This document shows positions 8,540 through 56,293 of a stretch of 63,001 nt of DNA, piece after piece (the stretch's first letter is position 1; each line of letters starts with the position of its first letter). Under the pieces are notes generated by a model, which saw only the letters and a program-made list of their open reading frames with translations, was not told the origin of the DNA and searched no databases. The stretch spans positions 173,091 through 236,091 of IMG/VR virus record IMGVR_UViG_3300022697_000186; one strand, given 5' to 3'. The DNA is from a virus (Duplodnaviria > Heunggongvirae > Uroviricota > Caudoviricetes). The position numbers and the translations under genes are program-made.

Positions 8540-10024
8540 TTATTTTCCTTTATCTACTAATGAAGAACCAAATAACACACTTTCAATAGGACTTTCTGGT
8601 CCTCTATCAGTAATTAAACCTTGATTGATAGCTTTCGAGAAATCTTCGAATGCTAGTCCAAGAGGCCAACTTATAACACCTGGTAATTTTTTAATACTTA
8701 GTAATATAGGATCATATGGTTTTTTAAGACGAGCAAGTATTTGTGGGTTACTTTTATTTCTTAATATATTAGATAGTACTATCTCTAAATGTACACTATC
8801 ATAATTTCTAGTATGAGAAAAGTTTTTCCAAAATTTTAAGAATAGACTTGGAACATCACCCCATGGACTTTTACCACCAACAAAAGAATCAAAGTCTCTA
8901 GCAAGTTTTGTATAATCTTCTTGTTTAGGTTTAACATGAAACATTTCGTCATCTTTATTATAAGTAATAGATATAATGTTATCTGCTACTTCAGTATCTT
9001 CAGTTACATAAACAGTGGTTTCATTCTCTAATCTTACAGAGATATCAACATCATCAATTATTATATCAAAATATCCAGTAGGTAATATGTATTTATTATC
9101 TTCTTGTTTTATTTTAATACCTGACCTTTCAAAAATATTAGTATCAATATTTAAAGTGATAAATTCAGATCTGCATACCATTATTTCTTTAACCTGTTCT
9201 AATGATCTTCTAATTTGATCTTCTAATTTATCATCAATTGTTTCCATAATACTTTTAATTAAATCTAATCTTTCAAGTATAACTGCTCCACCAGTATGAA
9301 AACTATTATGATTTTGAATACAACCTAAAAGGAAATCATTGGTGTTTGTTTTAATGTCATATACATAAGAATTCCAATTAGATGTTTTTCTAGTTCTCAA
9401 AATAGTCACATAATTTTTAATGATTGTGTCAGTTTTTTCTAAATTAATATCAATTGTAAAATAAACTTTATCATCTATATTAATTAAATCTATAGTCGAT
9501 ATAAAACCTACTCTATCACATATTAATTTAATTTGTTGTATCAAATTATAACTTTCAATTTTAATATTTAAAGATTTTGTCACTTTATAAAATAATCTAA
9601 TAAATTTTTCTAACCATTCTTTATCATAATTAATAAAATTTGGTTCCAGTCTTAAAGTTGATAAATTATCATTTCTAACTATTTCTGACTTTATTTCAGA
9701 ATTAATAATTGCACTTACAACATGTTCTTGATTTGATTTAGGAATAATATTATTATCATTTTGAGTAATAGAATTGTCAATCCAAATTTTGTCATTAATC
9801 TCTAAAGTTTTAGCTTCAATTTCTAAAATTTCTTTATTTCTACTAATAAATAAAGGATGATTTTCTTGACAAAATATTGTATGACCTGTTTCTGTAATTA
9901 ATAATAACATATCACATACTGGTAAATGTCTCTGTATAGAACTTGTAGTAACGGCACCACTTTGTCCTTGTATTTCAGTTACTAAATCAATAGTTTCTAA
10001 TTGTATATTTTCTTCTACTATCAC
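8540..10024 (-). CDS. rpoC: Split intein C-fragment fused to RNAP beta' C-terminal part
   Basis: Intein motifs GHTIFCQENHPLF and VYDIKT..QNHN, followed by SFHTGG (RpoC TFHxGG) and later DSVHLEIVL and LAFE. Confidence 0.9.
   Translation of the reverse strand: MIVEENIQLETIDLVTEIQGQSGAVTTSSIQRHLPVCDMLLLITETGHTIFCQENHPLFISRNKEILEIEAKTLEINDKIWIDNSITQNDNNIIPKSNQEHVVSAIINSEIKSEIVRNDNLSTLRLEPNFINYDKEWLEKFIRLFYKVTKSLNIKIESYNLIQQIKLICDRVGFISTIDLINIDDKVYFTIDINLEKTDTIIKNYVTILRTRKTSNWNSYVYDIKTNTNDFLLGCIQNHNSFHTGGAVILERLDLIKSIMETIDDKLEDQIRRSLEQVKEIMVCRSEFITLNIDTNIFERSGIKIKQEDNKYILPTGYFDIIIDDVDISVRLENETTVYVTEDTEVADNIISITYNKDDEMFHVKPKQEDYTKLARDFDSFVGGKSPWGDVPSLFLKFWKNFSHTRNYDSVHLEIVLSNILRNKSNPQILARLKKPYDPILLSIKKLPGVISWPLGLAFEDFSKAINQGLITDRGPESPIESVLFGSSLVDKGK
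9305..10024 (-). mobile_element. IntC of atypically split intein (240 aa) with degenerate LAGLIDADG-like remnant
   Basis: Block B-like (HTIFCQENHPLF), block F (VYDIKT) and terminal His-Asn, with Ser+1 at 9302-9304. Confidence 0.85.
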
Positions 10025-12093
10025 TATACTGCCATACCATATTTATAATTGCCGCAGTCCCATATTCTATCGAAACCGTTTAGCTGCATGTTTTGCCATT
10101 CAGTTAAAGTTGAATCAAATGATTCTAATAAATCTTTCAATTTATGTTTCTGATATTTCATTCTGTTTTCTCGACCATTATTTTTTAAATAAAAATAGTT
10201 AGGATTAGTTAGCTCTTTATATTTAAATCCTGAATTTAAATATCCGGTACCTTCACCATATCTAGCATCAGCATAAGTGATAATAGAACTACCAGGATTT
10301 AACTTTTTAAAGTGAGAAAGAAGCTTAGATAATCCTCCTATAACTGATGTATTTATTTTGTTACAAAAACGAAGTATTTCGTAATCATATTTCTTATTAA
10401 ACCTAGATTTTCCCATAGAAATCATCGAAATTAGAGCGTTTTCAAAATAGATTCCAATATGTGTACATTGTATACCACCTTGTAAATGATTATCAAATAA
10501 AAACTGTTTAGCTATTTTATTGTCAACCTTCTGTATTTGGCATTTTCTGGCAAATACTTTATTAGGTGATTTACCCATTTTGTTTAAAAGAATAGATTTC
10601 ACAATATCTCTTTTGTTTAACCACTCATCCTCAAATATCTGTATTAAATGAACACCTTTAGACTTAGCTAAAAGATGTTTATCCTGATGGTAGTTTTTGT
10701 TAACTCCCATTCTTTCACTGTGCCAGTAAAGACCATTGTATTCAATTCCTAATTTAATTTCCGGTATATAGATGTCTATTTCTTTTCCATCTAAAATTTC
10801 TCTATTCCCAGATTCAACATTGGAATAGTACTGTTTTACAAAGGTTAGAACTTCTTGTTCACCAACTGATGTTCCATTTAATTTAGGATAACAGGTTGGA
10901 CATCTAGGTATATGTCCATTCATTAAATGATCCTTAAAATTTGTAGTACATTTAATACAAATAAAAGGATATTTTATATAGTAATTACAAATTCCATTAT
11001 ATTCTTTTAAATTAAATAAAGGAATAACTAATCCTTTTAATCTATCTGAATTTAATAATCTATTATATGAAGTTTCTAGCATTTTGAATTTAAATTCATT
11101 ACTCTGACTAAAATATTTAGTTCCATATTTTTCTAAATTAGTATTTTCTATTTTTTCTCTTATTTCTTGCACTTGACTAGGATTATCTACACCATATTTG
11201 TTTCTGAATGAATCTACAAAAAGTTTCTTTCCTTTTTCAGTTTTCATAGGATTTTTATTTCCAAAAATTTCTAAATTAGTTTTTTCAATTTTTTCTCTAA
11301 TTGCTGGAGAATGAAATGAATATCCTCCGTTATTTATATACGAGGTCTTTTTTATTTTTTCTTTAATTATATCATTTTGATTTGCATATTCTACACCATA
11401 TTTTTCTAAACAAGTTCTCTTGGATTTTTCTTTAAATTCTTTAACTTGAGAAACGTTTTCTACACCATATTTCTCTTTACATGTTTGTTTAAATTTCTCT
11501 TTTACAACTTCAGATTTCATAGGGTTATCTACACCATAATTTTCTAAAGATGTTTTTTTCTTTTTATCCTGAAATTCTTTAACTTGAGAAATGTTTTCCA
11601 CATTATATTTAATTTTCAATGTATCTTTGTATTTCTTTTTATATGATTTTGTTTGAGAATTATGTTCTACTCCATATTTTTTTAATAAGGTATTTTTATA
11701 CTTTTTTTGTATTTCTTTATTTTGAAAAGCGTTTTCTACACCATATTTTTCTAAACAAGTTCTCTTGGATTTTTCTTTAATTTCTTTAGATTGTGAAGCG
11801 TGTTCAACACCATATCTTTCTAAATTAGTTTTCTTAGATCTATTTCTAATTATTTTAGATCTAGTTACACATTGTATAGAACAAAATTCAGCATAACCAT
11901 TAAATATTCCACGAAACTTAGTAGATTTATTACAATTCTCATTTTTACAAATATTATCTTTTTTATTATTTAAAATATATAAATAATAATCCTCTTTAGA
12001 AGGATGAGTGTCTTTTTTATTTTCACAACTAATATGCTTTGATAGAGCTGCTTTTGTAGTAACTTTTTTACTACAAATTTCACATTTAAACAT
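10024..12093 (-). CDS. Free-standing repeat-array endonuclease (Zn finger + about 11 x 23-aa repeats + Vsr/PD-(D/E)XK-like nuclease + GNAT/Mom-like C-terminus), inside fractured rpoC
   Basis: YGVE repeats, EIDIYIPEIKLGIEYNGLYWHSE, YEILRFC..GGLSKLL..ITYADARY, GFDRIWDCGN; coupled to both neighbours (TAAATG, TAGTG). Confidence 0.85.
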   Translation of the reverse strand: MFKCEICSKKVTTKAALSKHISCENKKDTHPSKEDYYLYILNNKKDNICKNENCNKSTKFRGIFNGYAEFCSIQCVTRSKIIRNRSKKTNLERYGVEHASQSKEIKEKSKRTCLEKYGVENAFQNKEIQKKYKNTLLKKYGVEHNSQTKSYKKKYKDTLKIKYNVENISQVKEFQDKKKKTSLENYGVDNPMKSEVVKEKFKQTCKEKYGVENVSQVKEFKEKSKRTCLEKYGVEYANQNDIIKEKIKKTSYINNGGYSFHSPAIREKIEKTNLEIFGNKNPMKTEKGKKLFVDSFRNKYGVDNPSQVQEIREKIENTNLEKYGTKYFSQSNEFKFKMLETSYNRLLNSDRLKGLVIPLFNLKEYNGICNYYIKYPFICIKCTTNFKDHLMNGHIPRCPTCYPKLNGTSVGEQEVLTFVKQYYSNVESGNREILDGKEIDIYIPEIKLGIEYNGLYWHSERMGVNKNYHQDKHLLAKSKGVHLIQIFEDEWLNKRDIVKSILLNKMGKSPNKVFARKCQIQKVDNKIAKQFLFDNHLQGGIQCTHIGIYFENALISMISMGKSRFNKKYDYEILRFCNKINTSVIGGLSKLLSHFKKLNPGSSIITYADARYGEGTGYLNSGFKYKELTNPNYFYLKNNGRENRMKYQKHKLKDLLESFDSTLTEWQNMQLNGFDRIWDCGNYKYGMAV

Positions 12094-13578
12094 TTATAAT
12101 TTATCCTTTTCTTCCCAAATATCATCCATTGATATTAATTTTTTATTTTTATTTATTAAACCTACACCACATTTCATAATCTTTTCCGCCAGACTCCCCA
12201 CTTCTTGTGCAGCTATAATACCCACATTAGGGGATGTTATTTGCTTTATTAAATCCCCGTAACATGTTCTACATATTTTTTTATTTCTACAAAATACAGG
12301 ACTTCTTAATTTGATTTTTTGACCAATCATTTTTTCTGAAATTTTAGTTATTATACCTTTATCATTTAATGTATATCTACCTGGCATTCTATTAAACATT
12401 GGTTTTGTTAATTTAATATTTAAAGTAGATTTTGTTCCACAGTCTTTAACTTTTAAATCAGCTTCAACATCACTTAAAATATATATCATTTTGCGATAAG
12501 TATAGCCACCTTGAGCAGTATTTAAAGCCCTATCAATAACACCTTTACGAGCACCTGATGCTGCATCAAAATAATTTTGAGGAGAATATCCATCATTAAA
12601 TGAATCAGTTATAGGTGGTAATGGATTACCCATTGGATCAGCTATTACACCTTTAGCTACCATAACCTGTCTTAATTGACTAATACCTTTTGATGCACCT
12701 GATTTAACTGCATAATATAAATCGTTATCAGTTTTCTTTAAATGCTTTAATAGTTCAATTTCCATCTGATGTTCAATTTCCATTTGGTCAGATAATGTTT
12801 TTGCCTTACCCAATTGTTGTTTTAATTCTATTAAGGTGTCAGGTAGTTCCATTTGATCTAAAGAAAATGTTTTAGGTTCTATTGTTGCATACTTAAAACC
12901 TAATAACATAAGTTTGTTAATTGTTTTACCAAACATATCACTACTTTTAGCAAGAATTTTACTTAATATATTATCCACTACTTTTTTAGTAATTTCTTCA
13001 TCTACAAACTCAAATTCTTTTGGTAATTCATTATTAAATATAATACGTCCAGCAGTAGTTCTTCTTTTACTACCTTTAAATACCATATCAACTAATTGTG
13101 TTATATTTTCTTGTTCTGCTTGTTCTATATTTTTAATTTTTTTAGGTAACGTTTTACGTCTTGGATCAGCGGTTAAAGTAAATAAACCTAATAACATTTC
13201 TTTACTTATTTCAAAATTAGGTTTATTAATTCCAGTTTTACTAGTAGCAGTAACCATTCTGTCTCTAGCTTCTTTTTGTGCTTCTTCAGATATTGGTGCA
13301 TATATTGCTAATGTATCACCGTCAAAATCTGCACCATATGGTCCTACAGAAGATGGATGTATACTTATTGAAACACCGTCAATAATTTTTACAAACTGTG
13401 CTTGAATTCTACCGGATTCAGTATTAGGATCTCTTTTACTTAATACAATTTTACCCTTTTCTTCAATCTCTCTAATTGCTACATCAAAAACCACATCATA
13501 TATGGATTTTGGAACTTTATAACCTTTAGCTATAAATTTAAGAACTTGCCTTATCTCTTCTGTATTACTTTTTTCCAC
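12094..13578 (-). CDS. rpoC: RNAP beta' central catalytic fragment ending in a short split-intein N-fragment
   Basis: YGADFDGD catalytic loop, SGASKG, GARKGVID..TAQGGYTYRK bridge helix, KDCGT, LRSPVFC..ICRTCYG, VGIIAAQEVG; GTG start. Confidence 0.95.
   Translation of the reverse strand: MEKSNTEEIRQVLKFIAKGYKVPKSIYDVVFDVAIREIEEKGKIVLSKRDPNTESGRIQAQFVKIIDGVSISIHPSSVGPYGADFDGDTLAIYAPISEEAQKEARDRMVTATSKTGINKPNFEISKEMLLGLFTLTADPRRKTLPKKIKNIEQAEQENITQLVDMVFKGSKRRTTAGRIIFNNELPKEFEFVDEEITKKVVDNILSKILAKSSDMFGKTINKLMLLGFKYATIEPKTFSLDQMELPDTLIELKQQLGKAKTLSDQMEIEHQMEIELLKHLKKTDNDLYYAVKSGASKGISQLRQVMVAKGVIADPMGNPLPPITDSFNDGYSPQNYFDAASGARKGVIDRALNTAQGGYTYRKMIYILSDVEADLKVKDCGTKSTLNIKLTKPMFNRMPGRYTLNDKGIITKISEKMIGQKIKLRSPVFCRNKKICRTCYGDLIKQITSPNVGIIAAQEVGSLAEKIMKCGVGLINKNKKLISMDDIWEEKDKL
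12097..12171 (-). mobile_element. IntN of atypically split intein (25 aa, CGVGLINKNKKLISMDDIWEEKDKL)
   Basis: Begins with Cys exactly where RpoC similarity stops (..EKIMK|C), and similarity resumes at S-F-H-T-G-G after IntC. Confidence 0.75.
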
Positions 13579-13590
13579 AACTGTCTACCT

Positions 13591-13911: not shown

Positions 13912-13916
13912 TATAA

Positions 13917-14834
13917 TTAAACCTCATCAATTAATTCTAAACGTTTACCCAAAAAGTCTTTAACAGCTGTATGAAATTCTTCTGGAATATTTTTGGCATA
14001 TTTACTGTTAACTAAACCATATATTAATTGATTCTCAAATAAACTACTTGCCATATCTAATGGTATTCCAATTTGTCCTAAATCTAAACTTGGGTCTGGA
14101 GATATTACACCTCTAGCAGAAAAATCAACTCTCTTACCAAGAATCATTTTTCTAATCATTCCTTGTTTTTTAGAAATAGTAACTCTAGATAATTCATATA
14201 ATTCTCTAATTAACATTTGCATTCTATATGCAAGTATATTATATAATTCACCAGATACACCTTTCAACTGACTAGAGTGTCTTATTATTTTTTGATATAA
14301 CTCTGTAAGTACATCAGCATCTTCTTCTGAACCATCTAAACCTAATGGTCTATATTCAGGAGATATAATAATTAATTTATCTATAAAAAAGGTACCTTTT
14401 TTTATATTATTATTTATCATTTTTACTAATTCATTTCTGTTACCAGTACCATCTTTACTAAGTCTAAATTTTATTTTATCCATATTTTTAACTAGACTAG
14501 TAAAACCAGATAGTTTTCCATTTTCATCTTCTTCTAAAGTACCATCTTCAGATATTTTAAATGAAGTATCTCCAGCAATTAATTTAACAATTTTTCTTTC
14601 AATTGTTTTGGATATTATATCATATAATGAGGGATGTATTACTGTACTATTTAAATCTACCCATGATAAATTTTGCTTTCTTTCTTTAGAACCATCCATT
14701 CCAAAGATTTCTTCGGAATATAATCCTTGAGGGTGGAATGTTTGGGATTTACCTAAATAGATTTGAGGACTAGTGACGGGTCCTTTTAATTTTCTACTTT
14801 TAATAATCTTGTTAACATTAAAAATTTTTATCAT
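13917..14834 (-). CDS. rpoC: RNAP beta' N-terminal fragment, lacking the Zn-ribbon
   Basis: GLYSEEIFG, IISPEYRP, LYQKII, KQGMIRKMILGKRVDFSARGVISPDP. Confidence 0.92.
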   Translation of the reverse strand: MIKIFNVNKIIKSRKLKGPVTSPQIYLGKSQTFHPQGLYSEEIFGMDGSKERKQNLSWVDLNSTVIHPSLYDIISKTIERKIVKLIAGDTSFKISEDGTLEEDENGKLSGFTSLVKNMDKIKFRLSKDGTGNRNELVKMINNNIKKGTFFIDKLIIISPEYRPLGLDGSEEDADVLTELYQKIIRHSSQLKGVSGELYNILAYRMQMLIRELYELSRVTISKKQGMIRKMILGKRVDFSARGVISPDPSLDLGQIGIPLDMASSLFENQLIYGLVNSKYAKNIPEEFHTAVKDFLGKRLELIDEV

Positions 14835-16657
14835 TTTTCACTCTGAATATAAGAATAATTACCACAGTCCCATATTCTGTCGAAACCATTTAATTGCATA
14901 TTTTGCCATTCAGTTAAAGTTGAATCAAATGTTTGTAGTTTGTCCTTTAATTTATGTTTTTGATATTTCATACGGGATTCTCTACAAACCTGTTTATTTA
15001 AATAAAAGTAATTTGGTTTACTTAATTCTTTATATATAAATCCACATTTCTCATATCCTTTACCTTCTCCATATCTTGCGTCAGCATAAGTGATAATAGA
15101 ACTAGGATTATACTCTTTCTTAAAATGCTTCAAAAGTTTAGATAAACCACCCGTAACTGAATAGTTTAATTTATTACAAAATCTTAAAATTTCATAATCA
15201 TACTTCTTGTTGAATCTAGATTTACCCATGGTAATCATAGATACTAATTCATCTTTATAAAATAAACCAATATGAGTTCCATTGATTTCACATTGTAAAT
15301 GATTATCAAATAGAAATTGTTTAGCTATCTTGTTCTCTACTTCTTTAATTTTACATTTACGTGCGAATATCTTAATGGGAGATTTACCCATTTTATTTAA
15401 AATGATACTCTTAACTATATCCTGTTTATTAAACCACTCATCCTCAAATATCTGTATCAAGTGAATACCTTTAGATTTTGCAAGTAAGGTTTTATTCTGA
15501 TGATATTTAGAATCTTTATTACCACCTATTTCACTATGCCAATAAAGTCCATTGTATTCGATACCTAACTTTAGTTCTTCTATATAAATGTCAATTTCTT
15601 TACCTTCTAAAATTATTCTATCTGATTTAGCATTTGGGTAGTACTTCTGTATAAAAGATAGTACTTCTTGTTCAGATTTTGATGTTCCATTTAATTTAGG
15701 ATAACAAGTTGGACATCTAGGAATTTTACCATTATCTAAATGATCCTCAAATATTATTTTACATTTAGTACATTTCCACGGATATTTATTATGATTAATA
15801 GATCCTATGTAATTTTCTAATTTAAATAAAGGTGTAACTAGATCTTTTAATCTATCTGAATTAAGAAGATTTTCAAAACCACTTAATAAATGAGTTTTCT
15901 TTATTTTTTGTTGTATCTTTTTTGATTGTGATACATTTTCTACACCGTATTTATCTAATAAAGTTTTCTTTATTTTCTTTTGAACTTCTTTAACTTGAAA
16001 AACACTCTCAACACCATATTTTTTTAAATTAGTTTTCTTTATTTTATTCTTAATACTTTCCAATTTTAGAGTAGTACTTACACCATATTTCTTTAAACAA
16101 GTTTGTTTAATTTTTTCTTTCACAATTTTAGAAGAACTTGGATGTTTAGTACCATATTTCTCTAAACTTTTTTTTTCCTTATTTTCTTTGACTATGGGAG
16201 ATTGAGAATAATATTCTACACCATATCTTTCTAAACAGGTTTTTTTCTTTTTATCTTGAAATTCTTTAGATTTAGATGGATTTTCAACACCATATCTATC
16301 TTTACATGTTTGTTTAAATTTCTCTTTAATTATATTATTAGACATTGAACACTTAGTAGAACAAAATAAATGATATCCATAAGATATATTTTTAAAAGTT
16401 ACATTAGAATTACATTCTATACAATTAGGTTTAACAGTTAATCCATTTAATAAAAAATAAATTCTTTCTGCTAATGAACATTTTTCACTTAAACTATTTT
16501 TTGTTTCTTTTATAATTAAATCTGAAATATTATCATCAAAATATTTAAAATTTTTAATCGTATGAAAATATATTTTAGGACCTATAATTTTTGGATCTGT
16601 TGTTTTAAATTTAGATATTAAATAGTTATCAATAATTTCTATTATTGGATTTATCAT
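14831..16657 (-). CDS. Repeat-array endonuclease paralog (6 repeats)
   Basis: Same nuclease and C-terminal module as 10024-12093; ATGA overlaps on both sides. Confidence 0.85.
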   Translation of the reverse strand: MINPIIEIIDNYLISKFKTTDPKIIGPKIYFHTIKNFKYFDDNISDLIIKETKNSLSEKCSLAERIYFLLNGLTVKPNCIECNSNVTFKNISYGYHLFCSTKCSMSNNIIKEKFKQTCKDRYGVENPSKSKEFQDKKKKTCLERYGVEYYSQSPIVKENKEKKSLEKYGTKHPSSSKIVKEKIKQTCLKKYGVSTTLKLESIKNKIKKTNLKKYGVESVFQVKEVQKKIKKTLLDKYGVENVSQSKKIQQKIKKTHLLSGFENLLNSDRLKDLVTPLFKLENYIGSINHNKYPWKCTKCKIIFEDHLDNGKIPRCPTCYPKLNGTSKSEQEVLSFIQKYYPNAKSDRIILEGKEIDIYIEELKLGIEYNGLYWHSEIGGNKDSKYHQNKTLLAKSKGIHLIQIFEDEWFNKQDIVKSIILNKMGKSPIKIFARKCKIKEVENKIAKQFLFDNHLQCEINGTHIGLFYKDELVSMITMGKSRFNKKYDYEILRFCNKLNYSVTGGLSKLLKHFKKEYNPSSIITYADARYGEGKGYEKCGFIYKELSKPNYFYLNKQVCRESRMKYQKHKLKDKLQTFDSTLTEWQNMQLNGFDRIWDCGNYSYIQSEK

Positions 16658-17067
16658 TTAAGTTTAATATTTACCTGTTTTTTAAGAATGTTCATTACTT
16701 CATCACTAACATTATGAGTTCTTGGAACCTTTAATATAGTAACTGGATTTTCAACACTATTCATATAAAATTTAATTTTCTCAATAAACTTTATATACTT
16801 ATCTTCTCCAGTCATTGTATGAAGTCTTTTAGCGTTCATTAAACTCTTTTTAAGTACTGGTATTGAAATGGCATTAGCTGGAGATAGAATAGGAAATATA
16901 GGTACTCCTTTTTTATCTTTAGCTAGAAATGCACCAGGGTTTGATTTATACAATGATGCTCTATTAGTCTTACTTTTAAAGAATTCTAAATCATTTTGTA
17001 GATTATTTTCTTTAAGTATACCTTTTAAATCTTTTAAAATATTTTCCATTAAAATTATATTATCCAT
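16654..17067 (-). CDS. Hypothetical protein
   Basis: 137-aa ORF overlapping both neighbours; N-terminal LME/LKE motifs. Confidence 0.65.
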   Translation of the reverse strand: MDNIILMENILKDLKGILKENNLQNDLEFFKSKTNRASLYKSNPGAFLAKDKKGVPIFPILSPANAISIPVLKKSLMNAKRLHTMTGEDKYIKFIEKIKFYMNSVENPVTILKVPRTHNVSDEVMNILKKQVNIKLK

Positions 17068-37866: not shown

Positions 37867-38055
37867 CTATTTTTTTCTAGAGGCGAGTAAACGTTTAGTT
37901 AGTTCTATAGATTTTTTTGCCTCATCAGTAACATTCGTTAAAATTTTTTTTATTGGACCACTTTTTTTTAATCTTGCGCTTAATCGTTTAGCTGCAATAT
38001 CTGCAACACCTTCTGAACAATATTCTTCTTCTAAAAATTTAATATAAGCTTCCAT
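37867..38055 (-). CDS. Small protein with acidic leader and basic body
   Basis: MEAYIKFLEEEYCSE followed by a K/R-rich helix. Confidence 0.55.
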   Translation of the reverse strand: MEAYIKFLEEEYCSEGVADIAAKRLSARLKKSGPIKKILTNVTDEAKKSIELTKRLLASRKK

Positions 38056-42989: not shown

Positions 42990-44861
42990 TTATACTCCTT
43001 TTTTATTAATAATTTTAATTTCATATTTATAATTACCGCAGTCCCAAATCCTATCGAAACCGTTTAATTGCATATTTTGCCATTCAGTTAAAGTTGAATC
43101 AAATGATTCTAATAAATCTTTCAACTTATGTTTTTGATATTTCATTCTGTTTTCACGACCATTATTTTTTAAATAAAAATAGTTAGGATTAGTTAGTTCT
43201 TTATATTTAAATCCACAATTCTCATATCCTTTACCTTCTCCATATCTAGCATCTGCGTAAGTAATAATAGAACTAGGACTATAATCTTTCTTAAAATGCT
43301 TTAAAAGTTTTGATAGTCCACCAGTAATAGAATAATTTAACTTATTACAGAATCTAAGTATCTCATAATCATACGATTTATTAAATCTACTCTTACCCAT
43401 TGTGATTAAAGAAACTAATTGATCTTTATAAAATAAACCTATATGAGTTCCATTAATTTCACCTTGTAAATGATTATCAAATAGAAACTGTTTAGCTATT
43501 TTATTATCAACTTCTTTTATGGTACACTTACGCGCGAATACTTTATTAGGTGATTTACCCATCTTATTCAATAATATACTTTTAACTATATCTTGCTTGC
43601 TCATCCATTCGTCTTCAAATATCTGAATTAAATGAACACCTTTAGATTTTGCAAGTAAAGTTTTATTCTGATGGTATTTAGGATCTGTATTATTACCAAG
43701 TTCACTATGCCAATATAAACCATGATATTCTATACCTAATTTTAACTCTTCAATATAGATATCTATTTCTTTACCTTCTAAAATTATTCTATCTGATTTA
43801 GATTCTGGGTAGTATTTCTGTATAAAAGATAGGACTTCTTGTTCCTCAATTGAGGTACCAGTTAATGGAGGGTAACAAGTTGGACATCTAGGAACTTTCC
43901 CATTAATTAAATTATCTTCAAAATTAATTTGACATTGGGTACATTTCCAAAGATATTTATAACTTGTTCCATTAAAACCATTTAAATTAAATAATGGTGT
44001 AACTAAATCTTTCAATCTATCTGAATTTAATAATCTATTGAAAAATTTTTTATGTAATGATTGTATAGACTTTTCTTTAAATTTTTTAACATTCATGGGA
44101 TTTTTAGCATCATATTTTTTCAAGCAAGTATTTTTAACATCTTCTAAATATTGTTGTGTTTGAGTATAATATTCTACACCATATCTATCTAAATTAGTTT
44201 TCTTTATTTTATCTTGAACTTCTTTAGATTGAAAAGAATATTCTACACCATATTTTTCTAAGCAAGTCTGTTTAGATTTTTCTTTAAACTTATCAGATTG
44301 TAAAGCGTGTTCTACATTATGTTTTTCAAGCATAGTTTGTTTAGATTTCTCTTTAAATTTCTCAGACTGTAAAGCATGTTCAACTCCATATTTTTTTAAC
44401 ATAGTCTGTTTAGATTTCTCTTTCATTATTTTTGATTGTGCTACATATTCAACTCCGTATTTTTTAAAACAAGTTTTCCGATATTTTTCTTTAAATTCTT
44501 CAACCTGTAAAGCATATTCTGTTCCATATTTATCCAACATAGTTTTTCTACGTTTATTTCTTAATTCTTTAGATTGAAAAGAATATTCTACACCATATTT
44601 CTCTAAGCAAGTTCTCTTGGATTTTTCTTTCAATTTATTACACCTTGCCACACATGCTGAGGAACAATATTTTCTATAACCTTTTTCGATAGAAATAAGA
44701 TTAGTCTCTTTTCCACAATAACAATATATTTGGGTTCCAATATATTTTAAATAGTAATCTTTAATATTTGGATGGGATTTCTTTCCTTTTATATATGAAA
44801 TATGTCTTGCTAAAGAACCCATATCCTTATATTTTTTATTACATATTTTACATTCTACCAT
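42990..44861 (-). CDS. Repeat-array endonuclease paralog (8 repeats)
   Basis: Same conserved C-terminal module; immediately downstream of the recA-like gene. Confidence 0.85.
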   Translation of the reverse strand: MVECKICNKKYKDMGSLARHISYIKGKKSHPNIKDYYLKYIGTQIYCYCGKETNLISIEKGYRKYCSSACVARCNKLKEKSKRTCLEKYGVEYSFQSKELRNKRRKTMLDKYGTEYALQVEEFKEKYRKTCFKKYGVEYVAQSKIMKEKSKQTMLKKYGVEHALQSEKFKEKSKQTMLEKHNVEHALQSDKFKEKSKQTCLEKYGVEYSFQSKEVQDKIKKTNLDRYGVEYYTQTQQYLEDVKNTCLKKYDAKNPMNVKKFKEKSIQSLHKKFFNRLLNSDRLKDLVTPLFNLNGFNGTSYKYLWKCTQCQINFEDNLINGKVPRCPTCYPPLTGTSIEEQEVLSFIQKYYPESKSDRIILEGKEIDIYIEELKLGIEYHGLYWHSELGNNTDPKYHQNKTLLAKSKGVHLIQIFEDEWMSKQDIVKSILLNKMGKSPNKVFARKCTIKEVDNKIAKQFLFDNHLQGEINGTHIGLFYKDQLVSLITMGKSRFNKSYDYEILRFCNKLNYSITGGLSKLLKHFKKDYSPSSIITYADARYGEGKGYENCGFKYKELTNPNYFYLKNNGRENRMKYQKHKLKDLLESFDSTLTEWQNMQLNGFDRIWDCGNYKYEIKIINKKGV

Positions 44862-48947: not shown

Positions 48948-49023
48948 ACATATTAAAATTAACCTAATTATTCAATCTAAATTCTTTAATATATTTGCTC
49001 ATTCATTTCTCCTGTTAATATTT

Positions 49024-49845: not shown

Positions 49846-49872
49846 AATATTCTCCAAACCAAAAGCTTATAA

Positions 49873-49887
49873 TTTATAGTTTGTCCT
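49873..49887 (-). promoter_or_regulatory. Candidate phage promoter, class B (AGGACAAACTATAAA)
   Basis: Recurrent intergenic motif. Confidence 0.5.
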
Positions 49888-49890
49888 ATT

Positions 49891-50397
49891 TTAAATCACT
49901 TCAAACTCAAAATCATAATCTTTTAATAGTTTTTGATACAATTCTAGCATTTTATCTTCAATTTTCTTACGATAATCAAGATCTTTAGAATCTCTAATTC
50001 CATCATCATAAATATAATTGTTTGACTTTATAGTTTTAAATATAATTTTATCATATGTATTCATAAATGACTTAGCTGTTTCTAATTTACGATTAGCTAA
50101 CTCATAATAACCCCCAACATATGTATATGCTATAGAATCAATTATTGATCTATCACAAATTACAATATCATACCACTCACAATATTCAATTTCAAATTTC
50201 ATTTGTTCAGCAAAAATCCATAATTGAGACATTTCAGTTGAATCTTTATTAATAGGTAAAGGACACCTTCTAGCTGTTTCAGCTATAATACCAACAGTTT
50301 TATCAGTATTATCTTTTTTAAATTTAGTAGCTAATTCAAATACTGATGTAGTCTTTCCCGTACCATGTGTGCCAGAGAATGCAATCTTCATGAACAT
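49891..50397 (-). CDS. NadR/AAA_28-like P-loop nucleotide kinase
   Basis: IAFSGTHGTGKTT, ETAR, ICDRSIID. Confidence 0.8.
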   Translation of the reverse strand: MFMKIAFSGTHGTGKTTSVFELATKFKKDNTDKTVGIIAETARRCPLPINKDSTEMSQLWIFAEQMKFEIEYCEWYDIVICDRSIIDSIAYTYVGGYYELANRKLETAKSFMNTYDKIIFKTIKSNNYIYDDGIRDSKDLDYRKKIEDKMLELYQKLLKDYDFEFEVI

Positions 50398-53300
50398 GCT
50401 CCCTCATTCTGGGAACAATTATAACACCAATAACAACTTCCTTTTTTTACCATTATATGACCACAATTTGAACATGCTGGTCCATCTAAATTAGAATTAA
50501 TATTAATTGTTTCTAATTGTTTCACAATTTCAGGTTCTTTATTATCTTTAGATTTTAAACCCAATTGAATTTGATCAGATTCCAAAAGAAATTTCATACC
50601 TATAAATTTACCAATATAATCTACAATAGATGTGGCAGTTCTTATATCTGGATTACCTGTAAATCCTGCAGGTTCAAATCTTTGATTCATTAATTTTCTA
50701 ACTATATCTTTTAAAGGAACACCGTATTGTAAATTAATACTAATCATAGTTGCAAAAGAATCAAATATTCCAGATAATGTACTTCCCTGTTTTGAAATCC
50801 TAACAAATATTTCTCCTAATTTACCATCATTATATAAACCACAATGTAAATAACCTTCAACACCAGCAATTGAAAATTTGTGATTTATTGATGTTCTAGT
50901 TGTTGGTAGTTTCTTTCTAAATGGAATACATGTTTTACACATTTCTGGACGTTGTCCATCAGTTGTATCAAAAAATAATTCTTCTTTTTTCTTACTAGTA
51001 TCTTCTCTTTTAAATGCTGAAAATGCTTTTGAACCTTCTCTAAATACAGTAATACCTTTTAGTCCCATTTTCCAAGCTGTAACATATACATCATGTACAT
51101 CATCAACTGAAACATTTTCAGGCATATTTATTGTTTTAGAAATAGCACCTGACAAAAACGGCTGTACTGCAGCTAACATTTTAATGTGAGCCATATAATC
51201 AATACATCTTACACCACCATTAGGGATATTTGCTGTGTCAAATATAGCCAAATGTTCTGGTATCAATTCAGTATTTTCTAAATGTCCATCTCTTTTAAGT
51301 ATAGAAATATAACGTTCAGATTCATTTTCACTATAACCCAAATTAATTAAAGATTGTTTTACTTCATCATTAACTATTTTAATTATAGCACCACCACTAC
51401 CTGCTAAAGATTTTTCTTTAACTAACAAAAACTCTGGTTCAATACCTGTAGTAGAACAACCCATAAGAAAAGAAGTTGTACCAGTTGGAGCAAGTAGTGT
51501 GACTTGTGCATTTCTTATTTTTGAATCAGGTTTTAAGAATTCAGCATTTTTCCAACAATCTTTAACATGTTTCAATAATGTTTCAGTAATTCTTTTATAA
51601 TTAGAACCAGATGCTAACAATGATGCTGCATCATTATGTTTATTTAAAATTCTATGAACATGAGATTTATTTTCTTCATATTTTTCAAACGATCCCATTC
51701 TTTCAGCTAGTTTATTACTAGCATTATAAGCATAACCTGTAAGTAATGCAGTCAATGATGCAGCAACTGTACGACCTTCATTATTACCATAAGGAAACCC
51801 TAACCACATAAGAGTAGAACCTAAATTAGAATAACCTAAACCTAATGGTCTATAATCATGTGAATTTTTTGTAATTCTTTTAGTAGGATAAGAAGAGCAA
51901 CCTACAAGTATATCTTGAGCTATAACCATAGTATTAATAATATCTTTATATTTTTTAATATCAAAATTTACATTACCATCTTTTCCTTTGGAAAATAATC
52001 TAAGTAAATTAATTGAAGCCAAGTTACAAGCAGAATCCTGAACGAAGGCAAATTCCCCACAATTCATAGTATTAACAAATCTAATTTTATTATTCTTTGA
52101 TTTTTCACCTATAATATAATAATTATGAAATTCATCAACTGTTCCATTATAAACATCTTCTTTTCCAATAAGTTCAACAGAAACAACTTTGTGATTATAA
52201 TTTCTACAATCTTCAATAAATTTATCCCAATTATTATTCCAATATTTATTGATAATATTACTATGTATAAATTTTTTAATTCCCTTTTCTTTTAAACACT
52301 TTTTGTATCCATTCCAATCATTTTTATTTATATAATTGTGAATTGATAAAATTTCACTTCCACATATTAAAGCCTTATTTTTAGTAGAAATTATTGCAGC
52401 ATTAACTTTTGATATTCTACCTTCTTTTGTACCAGACCAAATTTTTGATGATAAAGATATTTTCTTTTTAGTAGAATCTGTAGTCTTATAAGATTTTAAT
52501 TTTTCTTTTCTTGAACATTTACCACAAATACTAATTTCTCTATATTTATAATTAGTTATTAAATTATTATTACATTTTTCGCAGGTTTTTTGAATTAAAA
52601 CAACATTAGAACCATGAACATTTTTAATATTAGTATTATATCCTTGTGATAAAGCTTGTTGGTATTGTTCTAAAATAAAATTAGTAATTCCCTCAAAAGA
52701 ATCAAATCCAAGTTCTAAAGCACACCATTTAGATAGTCCAGATATACTTCCGTTTAATTGTTTAGATCTCCATATACCCATATTTTCAAATGATGGTATA
52801 TTTATATTTTCTGTATAATTCTTCCATTCTTTTTTAGTAAACTTTCTTCCAAGTTTTTTTGTTAAATTTAAAGCATGATTTCTTATTTCTTTATTATCAA
52901 TCCCTAAATACATACCATTTTTATCGGCAGAAACAGATTTGCTCATTTTATTCTTATAATTTTTCCATTTTTCTTCAGACCATTCAGTTTGAGCTCGAAC
53001 CATAGGATTATTTTTACCAAACATATTATGACAATGCAATTTATCGTGATTTTTTTTCTTCATTAATTCTAAGTTTTCTATAGAATTATTAAAACTATTA
53101 TAATCTTTATGATGTATGACCTCATCACTTTTTATTTTTATACTATTATAAAATTCATACATCATTCTATGTTCAGATGTATCATAAGAACAAGAACTAA
53201 CCCAAGCATAACCTGATTTATTACCAGATATTTTTTTCCCTAAAGATCTAATATTTCTAGTCATACTTTTAATACTATCATTATTTTTTAAATTTTTAGC

Positions 53301-54584
53301 TTCAATTACATTACCATTATTTAAAATAAATTTATGATTACCTGTAACCTTAACAAAATTACCATCATCAAAATTTACTTTATATATTTCTTGATTATAT
53401 CCTGTAACTCTAGGATTTCTCATATATCTTATTTTTAATTCTCCATCAGAATTATTACAATAAACCGGTACATCTTTACCATCTAAAACTAAAGTTTTAA
53501 AATCAACTATACCTCTTCCATCTGCTACAGATACTAATGTATCACCTGTAACACAAGGATTTGTCGATTTAATTTCTCCACCTTCAGGACAAGTGTGCCA
53601 TTCATTCATAGCATCACTAAATTGTACACCTGGATCTCCTGTTTGCCAAGCCAATTTTGCTATATCTTTTAATAAGTTATCAGCTGCAAATTGATCACAT
53701 TTTTCACCATTAGTAACATTTTTAGTCCACCACTCTTCTTTAGCTTCCGCTTTATTCATAAACTCATCAGATAATCTTACACTTATATTGGTGTTTTGAT
53801 AAAATACATGATCTGATAAATCTGAATTATTATCAACACCATAAGATTTTAAAATTCTAAGTTTTTCTTCTTCTTTTTTCTTACATGTAATAAATTCTTC
53901 AATGTCTGGGTGATCTATATCAAGACAAACTAATTTAGCAGAACGTCTTAATGTACCACCAGATTTTATTACTCCTGCTGATATGTCTGCAGACTTTAGA
54001 AATGAGACAGGACCACTAGCGTTACCTCCAGCTGATATTTTTTCTTTAGCGCTCCTAATACTACTCATGTTTATACCTGTACCACTACCATTCTTGAAAA
54101 TTAAAGCTTCTGTTTTAGCTACCTCAAAAATAGAATCCATAGTATCTTCTATATCTAAAATAAAACAAGCACTACATTGTGGTTTTTCATGTACTCCCAT
54201 ATTAAAATATACAGGACTATTAAATGCGAAATTCTGATTAATTTGATATAATTTTAATTTGTATACGAAATCATTATATTCTTCTTCTGTTTTAAAATAA
54301 TCTAATCTTTTACCTGCTTCACCAATTCCATCAGATACACGATCAACCATATGTTTTATGGAAGTCTCTTTATGTTTTCCAGAATTTAATAAATATTTAC
54401 TACTAACAATAGATACACTGTTGTCATTAAAAAAATCAGGAAATTCCACATCTTCATCAAATACAGCATTTCCTTTTGAATCAATTATTTGTGATTTTCT
54501 TTTAATAAAATTAATATCATCATATGGATCTTTTCTTTTCACGTTAGTTTTTTCCTTTATATTATTGTCATTTTTATTTGTCAT
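50388..54584 (-). CDS. nrdJ: Class II (adenosylcobalamin-dependent) ribonucleotide reductase with intein and C-terminal TSCPD/Zn-ribbon
   Basis: FNSPVYFN, QCSACFI, GSGTG, GGTLRRSA, TNP|intein|CGE, ACNLASINL, RPLGLG, APTGT, GAISKTIN, KGITVFR. Confidence 0.95.
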   Translation of the reverse strand: MTNKNDNNIKEKTNVKRKDPYDDINFIKRKSQIIDSKGNAVFDEDVEFPDFFNDNSVSIVSSKYLLNSGKHKETSIKHMVDRVSDGIGEAGKRLDYFKTEEEYNDFVYKLKLYQINQNFAFNSPVYFNMGVHEKPQCSACFILDIEDTMDSIFEVAKTEALIFKNGSGTGINMSSIRSAKEKISAGGNASGPVSFLKSADISAGVIKSGGTLRRSAKLVCLDIDHPDIEEFITCKKKEEEKLRILKSYGVDNNSDLSDHVFYQNTNISVRLSDEFMNKAEAKEEWWTKNVTNGEKCDQFAADNLLKDIAKLAWQTGDPGVQFSDAMNEWHTCPEGGEIKSTNPCVTGDTLVSVADGRGIVDFKTLVLDGKDVPVYCNNSDGELKIRYMRNPRVTGYNQEIYKVNFDDGNFVKVTGNHKFILNNGNVIEAKNLKNNDSIKSMTRNIRSLGKKISGNKSGYAWVSSCSYDTSEHRMMYEFYNSIKIKSDEVIHHKDYNSFNNSIENLELMKKKNHDKLHCHNMFGKNNPMVRAQTEWSEEKWKNYKNKMSKSVSADKNGMYLGIDNKEIRNHALNLTKKLGRKFTKKEWKNYTENINIPSFENMGIWRSKQLNGSISGLSKWCALELGFDSFEGITNFILEQYQQALSQGYNTNIKNVHGSNVVLIQKTCEKCNNNLITNYKYREISICGKCSRKEKLKSYKTTDSTKKKISLSSKIWSGTKEGRISKVNAAIISTKNKALICGSEILSIHNYINKNDWNGYKKCLKEKGIKKFIHSNIINKYWNNNWDKFIEDCRNYNHKVVSVELIGKEDVYNGTVDEFHNYYIIGEKSKNNKIRFVNTMNCGEFAFVQDSACNLASINLLRLFSKGKDGNVNFDIKKYKDIINTMVIAQDILVGCSSYPTKRITKNSHDYRPLGLGYSNLGSTLMWLGFPYGNNEGRTVAASLTALLTGYAYNASNKLAERMGSFEKYEENKSHVHRILNKHNDAASLLASGSNYKRITETLLKHVKDCWKNAEFLKPDSKIRNAQVTLLAPTGTTSFLMGCSTTGIEPEFLLVKEKSLAGSGGAIIKIVNDEVKQSLINLGYSENESERYISILKRDGHLENTELIPEHLAIFDTANIPNGGVRCIDYMAHIKMLAAVQPFLSGAISKTINMPENVSVDDVHDVYVTAWKMGLKGITVFREGSKAFSAFKREDTSKKKEELFFDTTDGQRPEMCKTCIPFRKKLPTTRTSINHKFSIAGVEGYLHCGLYNDGKLGEIFVRISKQGSTLSGIFDSFATMISINLQYGVPLKDIVRKLMNQRFEPAGFTGNPDIRTATSIVDYIGKFIGMKFLLESDQIQLGLKSKDNKEPEIVKQLETININSNLDGPACSNCGHIMVKKGSCYWCYNCSQNEGACS
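52062..53555 (-). mobile_element. Intein (498 aa) with HNH endonuclease, inserted at the RNR NPCxE catalytic motif
   Basis: N-terminal CVTGDTLV, block B VTGNHKF, HNH EHR..IHHKD..NNSIENL..H, block F DVYNGTV..HNY, end TMN|C. Confidence 0.92.
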
Positions 54585-54592
54585 ATACTTCC

Positions 54593-56293
54593 TTAAAATT
54601 TTAAATTATAAACGTAATTACCACAGTCCCAGATTCTATCGAATCCATTTAATTGCATGTTCTGCCATTCAGTTAAATTAGAATCAAATGATTCTAATAA
54701 ATCTTTCAACTTATGTTTCTGATATTTAATTCTTGATTCTCTACCTTGATTCTTTATATAATAATAATTAGGACTTGTTAATTCTTTATATACAAAATCT
54801 GAATTTAAATATCCAGTACCTTCACCATACCTGGCATCAGCATAAGTGATGATTGATTCTGGATTATACTCTTTCTTAAAATAACTTAAAAGTTTAGATA
54901 GTCCACCAATAACTGATGTATTCTTTTTATTGCAGAATCTAAGTATCTCATAATCAAATGACTTATTAAATCTACTCTTACCCATTGTGATTAAAGAAAC
55001 TAATTGATCTTGGTGATATAAACCAATATGAATTCCGTTAATTTCACCTTGTAAATGATTATCAAATAAGAATTGTTTAGATTCTTTGTTACTTACAGAT
55101 TTAATTTTGCACTTACGTGCGAATATCTTATTAAATGATTTACCCATTTTGTTTAATAAAATGGATTTCACTATATCCTGCTTATTTAACCATTCATCCT
55201 CAAATATCTGTATTAAATGAATACCTTTTTCTTTAGCTAAAAGATGTTTATCCTGATGGTATTTAGGTTCTGTATTATTACCAATTTCACTGTGCCAATA
55301 TAATCCATTATATTCAATACCTAGTTTCAACTCTAATATATAAACGTCAATTTCTTTTCCATCTAAACTGCTTCTATCTTGTTTAGCATTTGGATAGTAT
55401 TGTTTTACAAATTCTAATACTTCTTGTTCACCAATTGATGTTCCATTTAATTTAGGATAACAAGTTGGACATCTGGGAACTTTACCGTTGTCTAAATTAT
55501 CTTCGAATTCAGTTTCACACTTAGTGCATTTCCATGGATATTCATATTTAATTCCTTTATAATCTTCTAATTTAAATAAAGGTGTAACTAGATCTTTTAA
55601 TCTGCTTGAATTTAATAATCTATTAAAAAATTTTTTGTTAAGGTCCTCTTTATATTTATTAGTTTTAGTATAATGATTAACTCCATAATTCTCTAATAAA
55701 GTTTTCTTTGATTTCTCTTTAAATTCTTTAGTTTTAAAATAACTACTTACACCATGATTTCTAATACATGTATTAATCTTTTTTTCTTTAATTTCATTTG
55801 AGTATGATACGTTATCTACACCATAATTCTCTAATAAAGTTTTCTTTGATTTTTCTTTTATCTCATCTAATTGAAATACATTTTCAACACCATATCTATT
55901 CAAATTAGTTTTCTTTATTTTTTCTTTAAATTCTTTAACTTGAAAAACACTTTCAACACCATATTTTTCTAAGCAAGTTTTTTTGTATTTTTCTTTAAAT
56001 TTATCAGATTGTGAAACGTGTTCAACACCATATTTCTTTTTTATAGTTTTTTTACATTTATTCCTAGTTATCTTATTATTTGCAGAACATTTACATGAAC
56101 AATGTTTACTATATCCAGTATGTAATGTTAAAAATTTTGTTTTTTTTCCACAATAACAATAGTTAATATCACCTAAAAATTTATTATAATATTCTTCTTT
56201 TGATAAATGTGTAGAACTATTTTCTTTACGTCCAAGATGAGACCCCAATGATAAATAATTTTTAAATTCTCTTTTACAAATTTCACAAATCAT
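54593..56293 (-). CDS. Repeat-array endonuclease paralog (6 repeats)
   Basis: Same conserved C-terminal module; immediately upstream of nrdJ. Confidence 0.85.
   Translation of the reverse strand: MICEICKREFKNYLSLGSHLGRKENSSTHLSKEEYYNKFLGDINYCYCGKKTKFLTLHTGYSKHCSCKCSANNKITRNKCKKTIKKKYGVEHVSQSDKFKEKYKKTCLEKYGVESVFQVKEFKEKIKKTNLNRYGVENVFQLDEIKEKSKKTLLENYGVDNVSYSNEIKEKKINTCIRNHGVSSYFKTKEFKEKSKKTLLENYGVNHYTKTNKYKEDLNKKFFNRLLNSSRLKDLVTPLFKLEDYKGIKYEYPWKCTKCETEFEDNLDNGKVPRCPTCYPKLNGTSIGEQEVLEFVKQYYPNAKQDRSSLDGKEIDVYILELKLGIEYNGLYWHSEIGNNTEPKYHQDKHLLAKEKGIHLIQIFEDEWLNKQDIVKSILLNKMGKSFNKIFARKCKIKSVSNKESKQFLFDNHLQGEINGIHIGLYHQDQLVSLITMGKSRFNKSFDYEILRFCNKKNTSVIGGLSKLLSYFKKEYNPESIITYADARYGEGTGYLNSDFVYKELTSPNYYYIKNQGRESRIKYQKHKLKDLLESFDSNLTEWQNMQLNGFDRIWDCGNYVYNLKF

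Follow-up and report, generated by a model that had tools for sequence, protein, structure and literature searches.

What do the repeat-bearing nucleases of this phage locus do, and do their repeats read DNA in the manner of TAL effectors, as a preliminary description had proposed? The window, the whole stretch of DNA analyzed (63,001 nt, positions 173,091 to 236,091 of IMG/VR record IMGVR_UViG_3300022697_000186, Caudoviricetes), was reported to hold six related ORFs between 10024 and 56293, and we found all six where they had been placed, on the minus strand. The reported counts of 11, 6, 8, 5, 8, and 6 tandem 23-aa repeats were borne out as well, with anchor residues spaced exactly 23 aa apart. 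As the best explanation overall, with a probability of about 0.7, we propose that the six are free-standing Hef-type homing endonuclease genes of the EDxHD/Vsr-like family, derived from one lineage and guided by their repeat arrays in the way set out below. The features on which this reading draws are as follows.

8540-10024, minus strand: C-terminal intein piece, then the rest of RNA polymerase beta' (...IQNHN/SFHTGG)
10024-12093, minus strand: Hef paralog 1, 689 aa, 11 repeats; between the two split-intein halves of the RNA polymerase beta' gene
11059-11841, minus strand: DUF7487 array of paralog 1, aa 85-345, terminal capping half-repeat included
12094-13578, minus strand: RNA polymerase beta' fragment with a 25-aa N-terminal intein piece at its end (...AEKIMK/CGVGL...)
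14831-16657, minus strand: Hef paralog 2, 608 aa, 6 repeats, no C2H2-like finger in its N-terminal head; directly upstream of the N-terminal fragment of beta'
15869-16321, minus strand: DUF7487 array of paralog 2, aa 113-263
25480-27399, minus strand: Hef paralog 3, 639 aa, 8 repeats, including one shortened unit of 19 aa; followed downstream by a baseplate-hub-like gene
26503-27081, minus strand: DUF7487 array of paralog 3, aa 107-299
38060-39718, minus strand: Hef paralog 4 (P0004), 552 aa, 5 repeats; inserted at a junction where a syntenic relative has two abutting genes
39482-39718, minus strand: N-terminal zinc head of paralog 4, C2H2-like finger plus four-Cys module (C47, C49, C66, C70)
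39098-39481, minus strand: DUF7487 array of paralog 4, aa 80-207
38603-39097, minus strand: linker, zinc ribbon (C240, C243, C259, C262), and EDxHD/Vsr-like nuclease (E273, D300, H313, H318, D350) of paralog 4
38063-38590, minus strand: C-terminal Mom-like GNAT domain of paralog 4, aa 377-552
42990-44861, minus strand: Hef paralog 5, 623 aa, 8 repeats; directly downstream of a UvsX/RecA-like recombinase gene
44034-44624, minus strand: DUF7487 array of paralog 5, aa 80-276
54593-56293, minus strand: Hef paralog 6, 566 aa, 6 repeats; directly upstream of a class II ribonucleotide reductase (RNR) gene
55619-56059, minus strand: DUF7487 array of paralog 6, aa 79-225

All six genes described as paralogs are real, but the count was too low: the 236-kb phage contig carries twelve Hef-type paralogs, six of which had been overlooked. 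The paralogs matched PHROG 3339, annotated 'homing endonuclease', at E values of 1e-127 to 1e-143, and tblastn matched 422 phage records, several of them annotated as Hef or homing endonuclease. Hef was reportedly characterized by Sandegren et al. in 2005. In a tree, the 12 paralogs and two proteins of the closest related contig (P0007 and P0009, with C-terminal halves 80-82% identical) formed one clade with a support of 0.998, and judging by their sequences the twelve represent a single lineage-specific expansion in a jumbo-phage genome. A megablast search of 8 kb against the phage collection, a PDB search with the whole-protein sequence, and an NCBIfam scan returned no match. The gene family itself is ordinary, the Hef type being known and the Mom-nuclease fusion already in print. 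Hef of T-even phage U5 and the Hef-like proteins of Campylobacter phages CP220/CPt10, Dickeya phage LIMEstone1 (F-LimIII/VII/VIII/X), and Klebsiella phages RaK2/K64-1 share the full-length architecture of the paralogs (tblastn identity of 31-36% over 78-92% of the protein), and the Hef-like genes are likewise free-standing, located beside essential genes, and present in several copies per genome. Unlike these, the genes described here amount to twelve copies of one lineage-specific expansion, with one copy inside a split intein.

Each protein is built of four parts: an N-terminal zinc head, a basic DUF7487 array of 5-11 units, a zinc ribbon with a Vsr-like nuclease, and a Mom-like GNAT domain. 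The linker, CxxC...CxxC zinc ribbon, and nuclease motifs said to be common to the six ORFs are present in all of them. Their C-terminal halves, however, are only 70-84% identical and thus short of the 'almost invariant' claimed, although the N-terminal halves are indeed more divergent (31-56% identical). A profile of the nuclease region matched the catalytic domain of I-Bth0305I (3r3p, E 9e-7), the columns of catalytic D and H falling in register, and Hef has been assigned to the EDxHD/Vsr-like I-Bth0305I family (PMC3239194). The catalytic motifs are intact in 12 of 12 paralogs, and across 65 homologues E273, D300, H313, H318, and D350 (P0004 numbering) are invariant or nearly so, with N or H at the H313 position among the paralogs. 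Which N-terminal head a paralog has does not follow the branching of the C-terminal tree. In this phage lineage, one nuclease clade has come to occupy at least 12 loci with divergence mainly in its N-terminal part, which fits an enzyme retargeted through its array. Relative to the I-Bth0305I/EDxHD family (PDB 3R3P; PMC3239194, PMC2677866), the nuclease core is homologous, the catalytic residues are the same, and the split-intein 'fractured gene' context recurs; I-Bth0305I, unlike the paralogs, is intron-encoded, binds DNA through NUMOD/HTH motifs, and has no DUF7487 array, zinc ribbon, or Mom-like domain.

The C-terminal domain, scanned alone (residues 367-552 of P0004), matched Pfam Mom (PF25680) with an E value of 1.8e-7 and 31.5 bits, above the family cut-off of 27.1 bits, and 42 of 62 homologous domains did the same. 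Foldseek returned phage Mu Mom (8bv8) as its best match (E 1.6e-6), and VIA gave Z scores of 12-13 to GNATs, with 12.1 over 159 residues for Mom; a PDB search with the GNAT-domain profile gave no match. The domain contains invariant R, S, and D-x-R residues at a spacing like that of R111, S124, D149, and R151, which are essential in Mom, and on this spacing it may, like Mom, carry out a tRNA-dependent modification of adenine in dsDNA. Phage Mu Mom (PDB 8BV8) is a stand-alone enzyme, in contrast to the fused domain found here. Mom-family GNAT domains are likewise fused to nucleases of the restriction-endonuclease fold in jumbo-phage Mom-REase fusions, which Iyer et al. (2021; PMC7824862) interpret as a restriction-modification-like system; their passages on Mom make no mention of a repeat array.

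The genes lie at junctions of syntenic genes or, in one case, within a split intein. Paralog 1 separates the IntN and IntC pieces of the RNA polymerase beta' intein, all on one strand, and its locus is exactly the 'fractured gene' layout of N-extein plus IntN, free-standing endonuclease, and IntC plus C-extein described by Dassa et al. (2009; PMC2677866). Other paralogs flank the UvsX and RNR genes, and these places, like the beta' intein, are classic locations for homing genes. At the position of paralog 4, the 377-aa and 205-aa genes of a syntenic relative (L001) abut; this presence/absence comparison involves one distant Hef-free relative, found through its UvsX (48% amino acid identity) and too far diverged for comparison at the DNA level. 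Insertion at essential-gene junctions and in a split intein, together with absence from the relative, is the signature of mobile homing genes, and the paralogs probably home. Upstream of the 12 genes we found no shared promoter or RBS motif, and several of the genes start directly after the stop codon of the gene before them.

To what extent, then, does the array choose the target? All six arrays matched Pfam DUF7487 (PF24308) at E values of 1e-21 to 1e-57 and 77-196 bits, against a gathering score of 27 bits, with the repeat part covering profile positions 1-120; the repeats are therefore far beyond chance. For five of the six genes, TRF independently detected a period of 69 bp. Family-wide, the period is 23 aa in 578 of 643 spacings, and arrays reach 14 units. 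Our literature search returned no paper naming DUF7487 or describing its repeats. AF2 models (pLDDT 91-92) predict a regular helix-loop unit composed of one 15-residue helix and a Gly-containing capped loop with a 3-residue turn. Structure searches with the array model returned only matches too poor to be meaningful (best Foldseek E 0.5, best VIA Z 3.4), with no TALE chain among them; with no solved fold matched, we do not assign the array to the TALE, HhH, TPR, or HEAT folds. Isolated arrays did not match Pfam NUMOD3 even at E values up to 10, although distant kinship is possible, and a language-model atlas search found no named neighbor outside DUF7487. One array stretch matched the Pfam 'T7 gp5.9 RecBCD inhibitor' family over 16 residues (26.6 bits), which we judged too short.

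The arrays are strongly basic, with a net charge of +18 to +25 and a pI of 9.6-9.9, and a zinc module always precedes them. Viral proteins with DUF7487 arrays number in the thousands (one search alone returned more than 5,800 short ones), and beyond the architecture described above we found five other domain partners: a lone DUF559/Vsr-like nuclease, a classical PD-(D/E)xK nuclease, an N-terminal GIY-YIG domain, an HNH domain, and an N6_N4 methylase. The array is thus portable across at least six nuclease or methylase contexts, and its fusion to so many DNA-acting domains indicates a targeting module that probably binds DNA. Most likely, it is a DNA-binding arm that helps in target choice.

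How such an arm would discriminate among sites is where the preliminary description went furthest, picturing a conserved scaffold with a few hypervariable residues after YGV(E/D), each repeat reading one base or base step in a decodable, reprogrammable TALE-like code. We computed per-position entropy over the 44 aligned repeats and found that the supposedly hypervariable residues 14-16 are among the most variable (1.96, 2.78, and 2.52 bits) but do not stand alone, since positions 2, 6, 18, 19, 20, and 21 vary about as much. The family as a whole shows the same pattern, and in both sets more than 10 positions have an entropy of at least 2 bits. Any two repeats share on average 9.3 of 23 residues (about 40%), so the picture of a fixed scaffold with a few variable residues does not hold. 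A code would find some encouragement in the restricted alphabets of the polar loop positions: about 80% of repeats have N, H, Y, or S at position 14, E at position 13 goes with Q at position 17 and D with K, and about half of 1606 repeats fall into four classes (ENQ, EHQ, EYQ, and DNK). Arrays also differ among paralogs at different loci, and between collinear arrays positions 13, 6, 17, 7, 16, and 14 are conserved relative to the variation among repeats (ratio 0.24-0.37, compared with a mean of 0.44), so that loop positions 13-17 keep a repeat-specific identity. Against this, positions 14-16 take 262 different triplets among 766 repeats, and position 21, a hydrophobic core position, covaries with residues 15 and 16 (MI 0.48 and 0.31), indicating that these two residues help to pack the fold. 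N14-P15-x-Q17 looks like a helix N-capping box, which would give the restricted alphabets a structural reason. Relating residue usage at position 14 to genome GC content was rejected as an approach, because codon bias would confound the outcome. With degenerate repeats and no TALE-like fold in Foldseek or VIA, we saw no sign of a decodable repeat-to-base code and regard one as quite unlikely. We hold it just as improbable that DUF7487 represents a novel kind of programmable repeat for DNA recognition, in which residues 13, 14, and 17 (mainly E-N-Q, E-H-Q, E-Y-Q, D-N-K) would read successive bases and phages would redirect nucleases and a methylase to other targets by rearranging the units. Some reading per repeat may nevertheless take place through loop positions 13-17. 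An endonuclease with a conserved catalytic half and a variable module, the broader idea behind the code, is upheld by the portable array and the N-terminal divergence; its TALE-like decoding is not.

At the other extreme, the array might make no choice of sequence at all, acting as a sequence-independent DNA clamp or as a rigid ruler whose repeat number sets how far from the cut a specific binder lies, be it the zinc head, the nuclease, or the Mom-like domain. The most conserved repeat positions are indeed basic or of backbone type (K1, K3, T5, K/R9, Y10, G11, and K22), the specificity of I-Bth0305I lies around its cleavage site rather than in its distal DNA-binding region (PMC3239194), and in I-TevI the linker is a distance determinant (PMC10448857). 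A pure spacer, however, has no need to keep repeat-specific loop residues between collinear arrays, and the array also serves nucleases without any other obvious specificity domain, such as P0211, which consists of an array and a PD-(D/E)xK nuclease only. We consider this account doubtful. The C-terminal domain suggests another possibility, in which the proteins would be restriction-modification-like weapons: the Mom-like domain would modify adenines of the phage's own DNA, the nuclease would attack unmodified DNA of the host or of rival phages, and the array would give both their site preference. That the domain exceeds the Pfam Mom cut-off, that its R, S, and D-x-R residues are spaced as in Mom, and that all copies are intact speak for this, as does the proposal made along these lines by Iyer et al. 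(2021; PMC7824862) for jumbo-phage Mom-REase fusions. The placement of the genes at essential-gene junctions and inside a split intein, and their absence from the syntenic relative, argue against it; in addition, Hef of phage U5 is cited as a homing endonuclease that cleaves nrdB. We think a role purely as weapons rather improbable, although the two activities are not mutually exclusive. Iyer et al. read these same Mom-nuclease fusions as restriction-modification-like weapons and not as homing elements, which counts against homing.

For array-guided homing endonucleases, the reading we prefer, the following mechanism can be proposed. The zinc head and array would most likely lie along the DNA and keep the enzyme on a long target site of loose specificity. 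Backbone contacts would come from the conserved Lys, Thr, and Tyr residues and from the helix N-termini, with a degree of sequence preference contributed by loop residues 13-17, which are specific to each repeat. Cleavage by the nuclease would then follow near the bound site, and repair during co-infection would copy the gene into relatives without a copy. New targets could be acquired as repeats and N-terminal heads are gained, lost, or exchanged, or as they diverge; where similar repeats are found in several paralogs, their place in the array differs.

Such a design would follow the logic of the NUMOD modules of GIY-YIG and HNH enzymes and of the repeated T5orf172 zinc fingers, in which short, exchangeable DNA-binding modules sit on interchangeable nucleases and recombination between repeats alters the arrays (PMC10448857). 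DUF7487 differs from NUMOD in its lack of a Pfam NUMOD3 match, its strict 23-residue period, and its much longer arrays. The analogy to TAL effectors and TALENs holds for architecture only: both systems join a variable-length tandem array of helical repeats to a nuclease, with arrays that differ between paralogs, but TALE repeats are 33-35 aa long, two-helical, wound into a superhelix that follows the major groove, and nearly identical with two variable residues, whereas the DUF7487 unit has 23 aa, a single long helix in the AF2 models, and widely spread variation.

DUF7487 is listed only as a domain of unknown function, and it is found in six or more kinds of DNA-acting catalytic setting. If the array binds DNA with per-repeat preferences, engineers of DNA-targeting proteins would gain a new scaffold that is compact, with 23 residues to the unit. 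This genome is well suited to testing the idea: its twelve nucleases are similar in their catalytic halves, and each has an array and an insertion site of its own; should a code exist after all, the twelve close paralogs would be a ready-made training set. Even without one, a single selfish nuclease lineage has colonized this phage genome, splitting its RNA polymerase beta' gene by way of an intein, and its Hef paralogs occupy about 9% of the contig.

The window, at ~26% GC and with all long ORFs on the minus strand, is the final 63 kb of a 236,091-bp IMG/VR virus record, whose size at a CheckV completeness of 69% identifies the source as a jumbo phage. Six array-bearing genes lie in it, all translating cleanly:

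10024-12093, minus strand: paralog 1, 11 repeat units
14831-16657, minus strand: paralog 2, 6 repeat units
25480-27399, minus strand: paralog 3, 8 repeat units
38060-39718, minus strand: paralog 4, 5 repeat units
42990-44861, minus strand: paralog 5, 8 repeat units
54593-56293, minus strand: paralog 6, 6 repeat units

PHROGs annotates the six as homing endonucleases, and tblastn found relatives in 422 phage records, including genes from Campylobacter phages and RaK2/K64-1-like jumbo phages that are labelled Hef or homing endonuclease. Phage Hef enzymes belong to the EDxHD/Vsr-like family of I-Bth0305I (PMC3239194), and the Hef of phage U5 is cited as an endonuclease cleaving nrdB. A profile of the region between array and C-terminal domain matched the sequence of the I-Bth0305I crystal structure (3r3p, E 9e-7), with the catalytic Asp and His columns, both Ala in that crystallised mutant, lining up. 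Residues D300, E311, H318, E349-D350-E351 and E273 (paralog 4 numbering) are invariant in a 65-sequence alignment and fit an active site of the I-Bth0305I type. The window's genes belong, as new members, to an already known family. We found twelve full-length paralogs on the whole contig, two of them in tandem, with motifs intact in 12 of 12. Together with two proteins from one related contig they form a single clade in a tree of 50 family members (support 0.998), and the remaining homologues are at most 62% identical in the C-terminal half, indicating that, in this phage lineage, a single line of nucleases came to occupy a dozen loci. The tandem pair (G000:C1:84169-87766 on the whole contig, outside the window; 22 bp between genes) has the most degenerate arrays, with 4-5 recognisable units, and one member lacks the Mom-like-domain motifs YADARYG and RIWDCG as searched.

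The unit numbers listed are those of the preliminary description, and we confirmed them: K-Y-G-V anchors are spaced exactly 23 residues apart, an HMM built from the units agrees, and TRF detected a 69-bp period in all but one of the genes. The repeat region corresponds to Pfam DUF7487 (E 1e-21 to 1e-57 across the six proteins). Among paralogs, the C-terminal halves share 70-84% protein identity (about 73-82% at the DNA level) and the N-terminal halves 31-56%, so the contrast reported between the halves stands, although "almost invariant" was too strong for the former. Across the 44 window repeats, K1, K3, T5, L7, Y10, G11 and V12 are best conserved and entropy peaks at position 15 (2.78 bits), followed by 2 (2.76), 16 (2.52), 21 (2.46), then 18 and 6; the same pattern holds across 766 repeats from 124 family members, which carry 262 distinct triplets at positions 14-16. 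With a mean identity of 9.3 of 23 residues between two repeats and high entropy also at 2, 21, 18 and 6, the repeat is degenerate; a fixed framework in which just two or three residues are hypervariable does not describe it. The preliminary observation is real, apart from two overstatements, on C-terminal conservation and on the repeat scaffold. The Pfam DUF7487 model itself (220 positions) merges the repeats (1-120) with a separate C-terminal PD-(D/E)xK-like nuclease domain (120-220), as seen via the metagenomic homologues P0211 and P0157; the window proteins lack this second part. One repeat of paralog 1 (residues 106-121, window about 11731-11778) also matches PF25708, "Phage T7 gp5.9 RecBCD inhibitor", over 16 residues at 26.6 bits, exceeding that family's cut-off, and PF25708 is likewise precomputed on two short array proteins.

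In both AF2 models, of full-length paralog 4 (mean pLDDT 91.6) and of the paralog 1 zinc head with its 11-unit array (pLDDT 91.2), each unit comprises a helix of 15 residues (repeat positions 19-23 and 1-10), a loop of four (G11-V12-x13-x14) and a turn of three (15-17) before the next helix. The array model had no solved-structure counterpart by Foldseek (best E 0.5) or VIA (48,161 chains, best Z 3.4). Within the ESM Atlas, superposition of the array's own model onto other DUF7487 arrays reached TM 0.76 over 261 residues, so the predicted arrangement is consistent within the family. The arrays are highly basic (net charge +18 to +25, pI 9.6-9.9).

The strongest evidence for a DNA-targeting role comes from the array's partner domains. 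Besides the Hef architecture, the array occurs with a DUF559/Vsr-like nuclease alone (P0205), with an N-terminal GIY-YIG nuclease (P0203), with a classical PD-(D/E)xK domain bearing the motif D-I-F-I-P ... I-E-V-K (P0211, P0157) and, in ESM Atlas clusters, with HNH nucleases and an N6/N4 DNA methyltransferase. Short array-bearing proteins numbered 5,836 in one search. Being common to six DNA-acting catalytic contexts and always preceded by a small zinc module, the array most plausibly serves as a DNA-binding arm, analogous in this to NUMOD modules and the zinc-finger repeats of T5orf172 endonucleases (PMC2677866, PMC10448857). It is a widespread, uncharacterised module that probably binds DNA and selects targets. 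Among the twelve paralogs, the diverged part is the N-terminal head plus array. The presence or absence of a C2H2-like finger in the head is discordant with the C-terminal tree, and paralogs share similar units at non-corresponding places in their arrays (in one example, units 2-3 match units 4-5 of another paralog); both point to module exchange.

Whether targets are read by a TALE-like code through the residues after YGV[ED], as the preliminary description suggested, is a separate matter. We compared 14 clusters of collinear arrays, equal in unit number and 55-95% identical, with random repeat pairs. Relative to among-repeat variability, conservation was strongest at positions 13, 6, 17, 7, 16 and 14 (ratios 0.24-0.37, mean 0.44), and the drifting positions were 4, 8, 19, 20 and 23, on the helix surface. 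The loop identity is thus repeat-specific and constrained, the strongest argument for a code. Residue 15, however, covaries with hydrophobic position 21 (Pro with Ile or Val, Tyr with Phe or Tyr), as does residue 16, so these "hypervariable" residues belong to packing. Position 14 (usage N > H > Y > S), together with Pro15 and Gln17, has the look of a helix N-capping box; this and the coupling of positions 13 and 17 (E...Q or D...K) offer a structural explanation for the restricted alphabets. Covariation and capping box both speak against a simple code. Support for a TALE-like code is lacking and such a code is improbable, though conceivable; capping would still be compatible with residues 13, 14 or 17 touching bases.

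The last 175 residues of the paralog 4 model adopt a GNAT fold, whose top Foldseek match is phage Mu Mom (8bv8, E 1.6e-6). VIA gave Z 12-13 against many GNATs and 12.1 over 159 residues against Mom. Scanned alone, the domain exceeds the Pfam Mom threshold (31.5 versus 27.1 bits), and 42 of 62 homologous domains match Pfam Mom. Mom glycylates adenine in dsDNA from Gly-tRNA, with R111, S124, D149 and R151 essential; the Hef domain has an invariant or near-invariant R, S and D-x-R that are similarly spaced, the likeness being one of spacing. Jumbo-phage proteins that fuse a Mom domain to a restriction-fold nuclease are already published and, in PMC7824862, interpreted as restriction-modification-like.

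The paralogs occupy typical homing sites. Paralog 1 sits precisely between a beta' fragment that ends in ...AEKIMK/CGVGL... (a 25-residue N-intein piece) and an ORF with ...IQNHN/SFHTGG, the "fractured gene" layout that gave the first description of Vsr-like endonucleases (PMC2677866). The RNA polymerase beta' gene (window 8540-13578) is interrupted there by an atypically split intein (25-aa N-piece following ...AEKIMK, roughly 240-aa C-piece that ends at ...IQNHN/SFHTGG), and a further break separates beta' fragments 13917-14834 and 12094-13578. Paralog 2 is upstream of the beta' N-terminal fragment, paralog 3 upstream of a baseplate-hub-like gene, paralog 5 downstream of UvsX and paralog 6 upstream of a class II RNR gene. 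This ribonucleotide reductase (window 50388-54584, 1398 aa) contains an intein with an HNH endonuclease domain (Pfam Intein_splicing, HNH_3), a second type of mobile element directly adjoining paralog 6. An 82-kb relative (UvsX 48% identical) has no Hef genes, and homologues of paralog 4's flanking genes abut in it, so a 62-aa ORF at window 37867-38055, between paralog 4 and a conserved 201-aa gene, may have arrived with the nuclease. Several Hef genes begin directly after the upstream stop codon (TAA-ATG; e.g., window 12091-12096 and 16655-16660) with no ribosome-binding site or shared promoter visible at these starts, suggesting translational coupling to the invaded operon.
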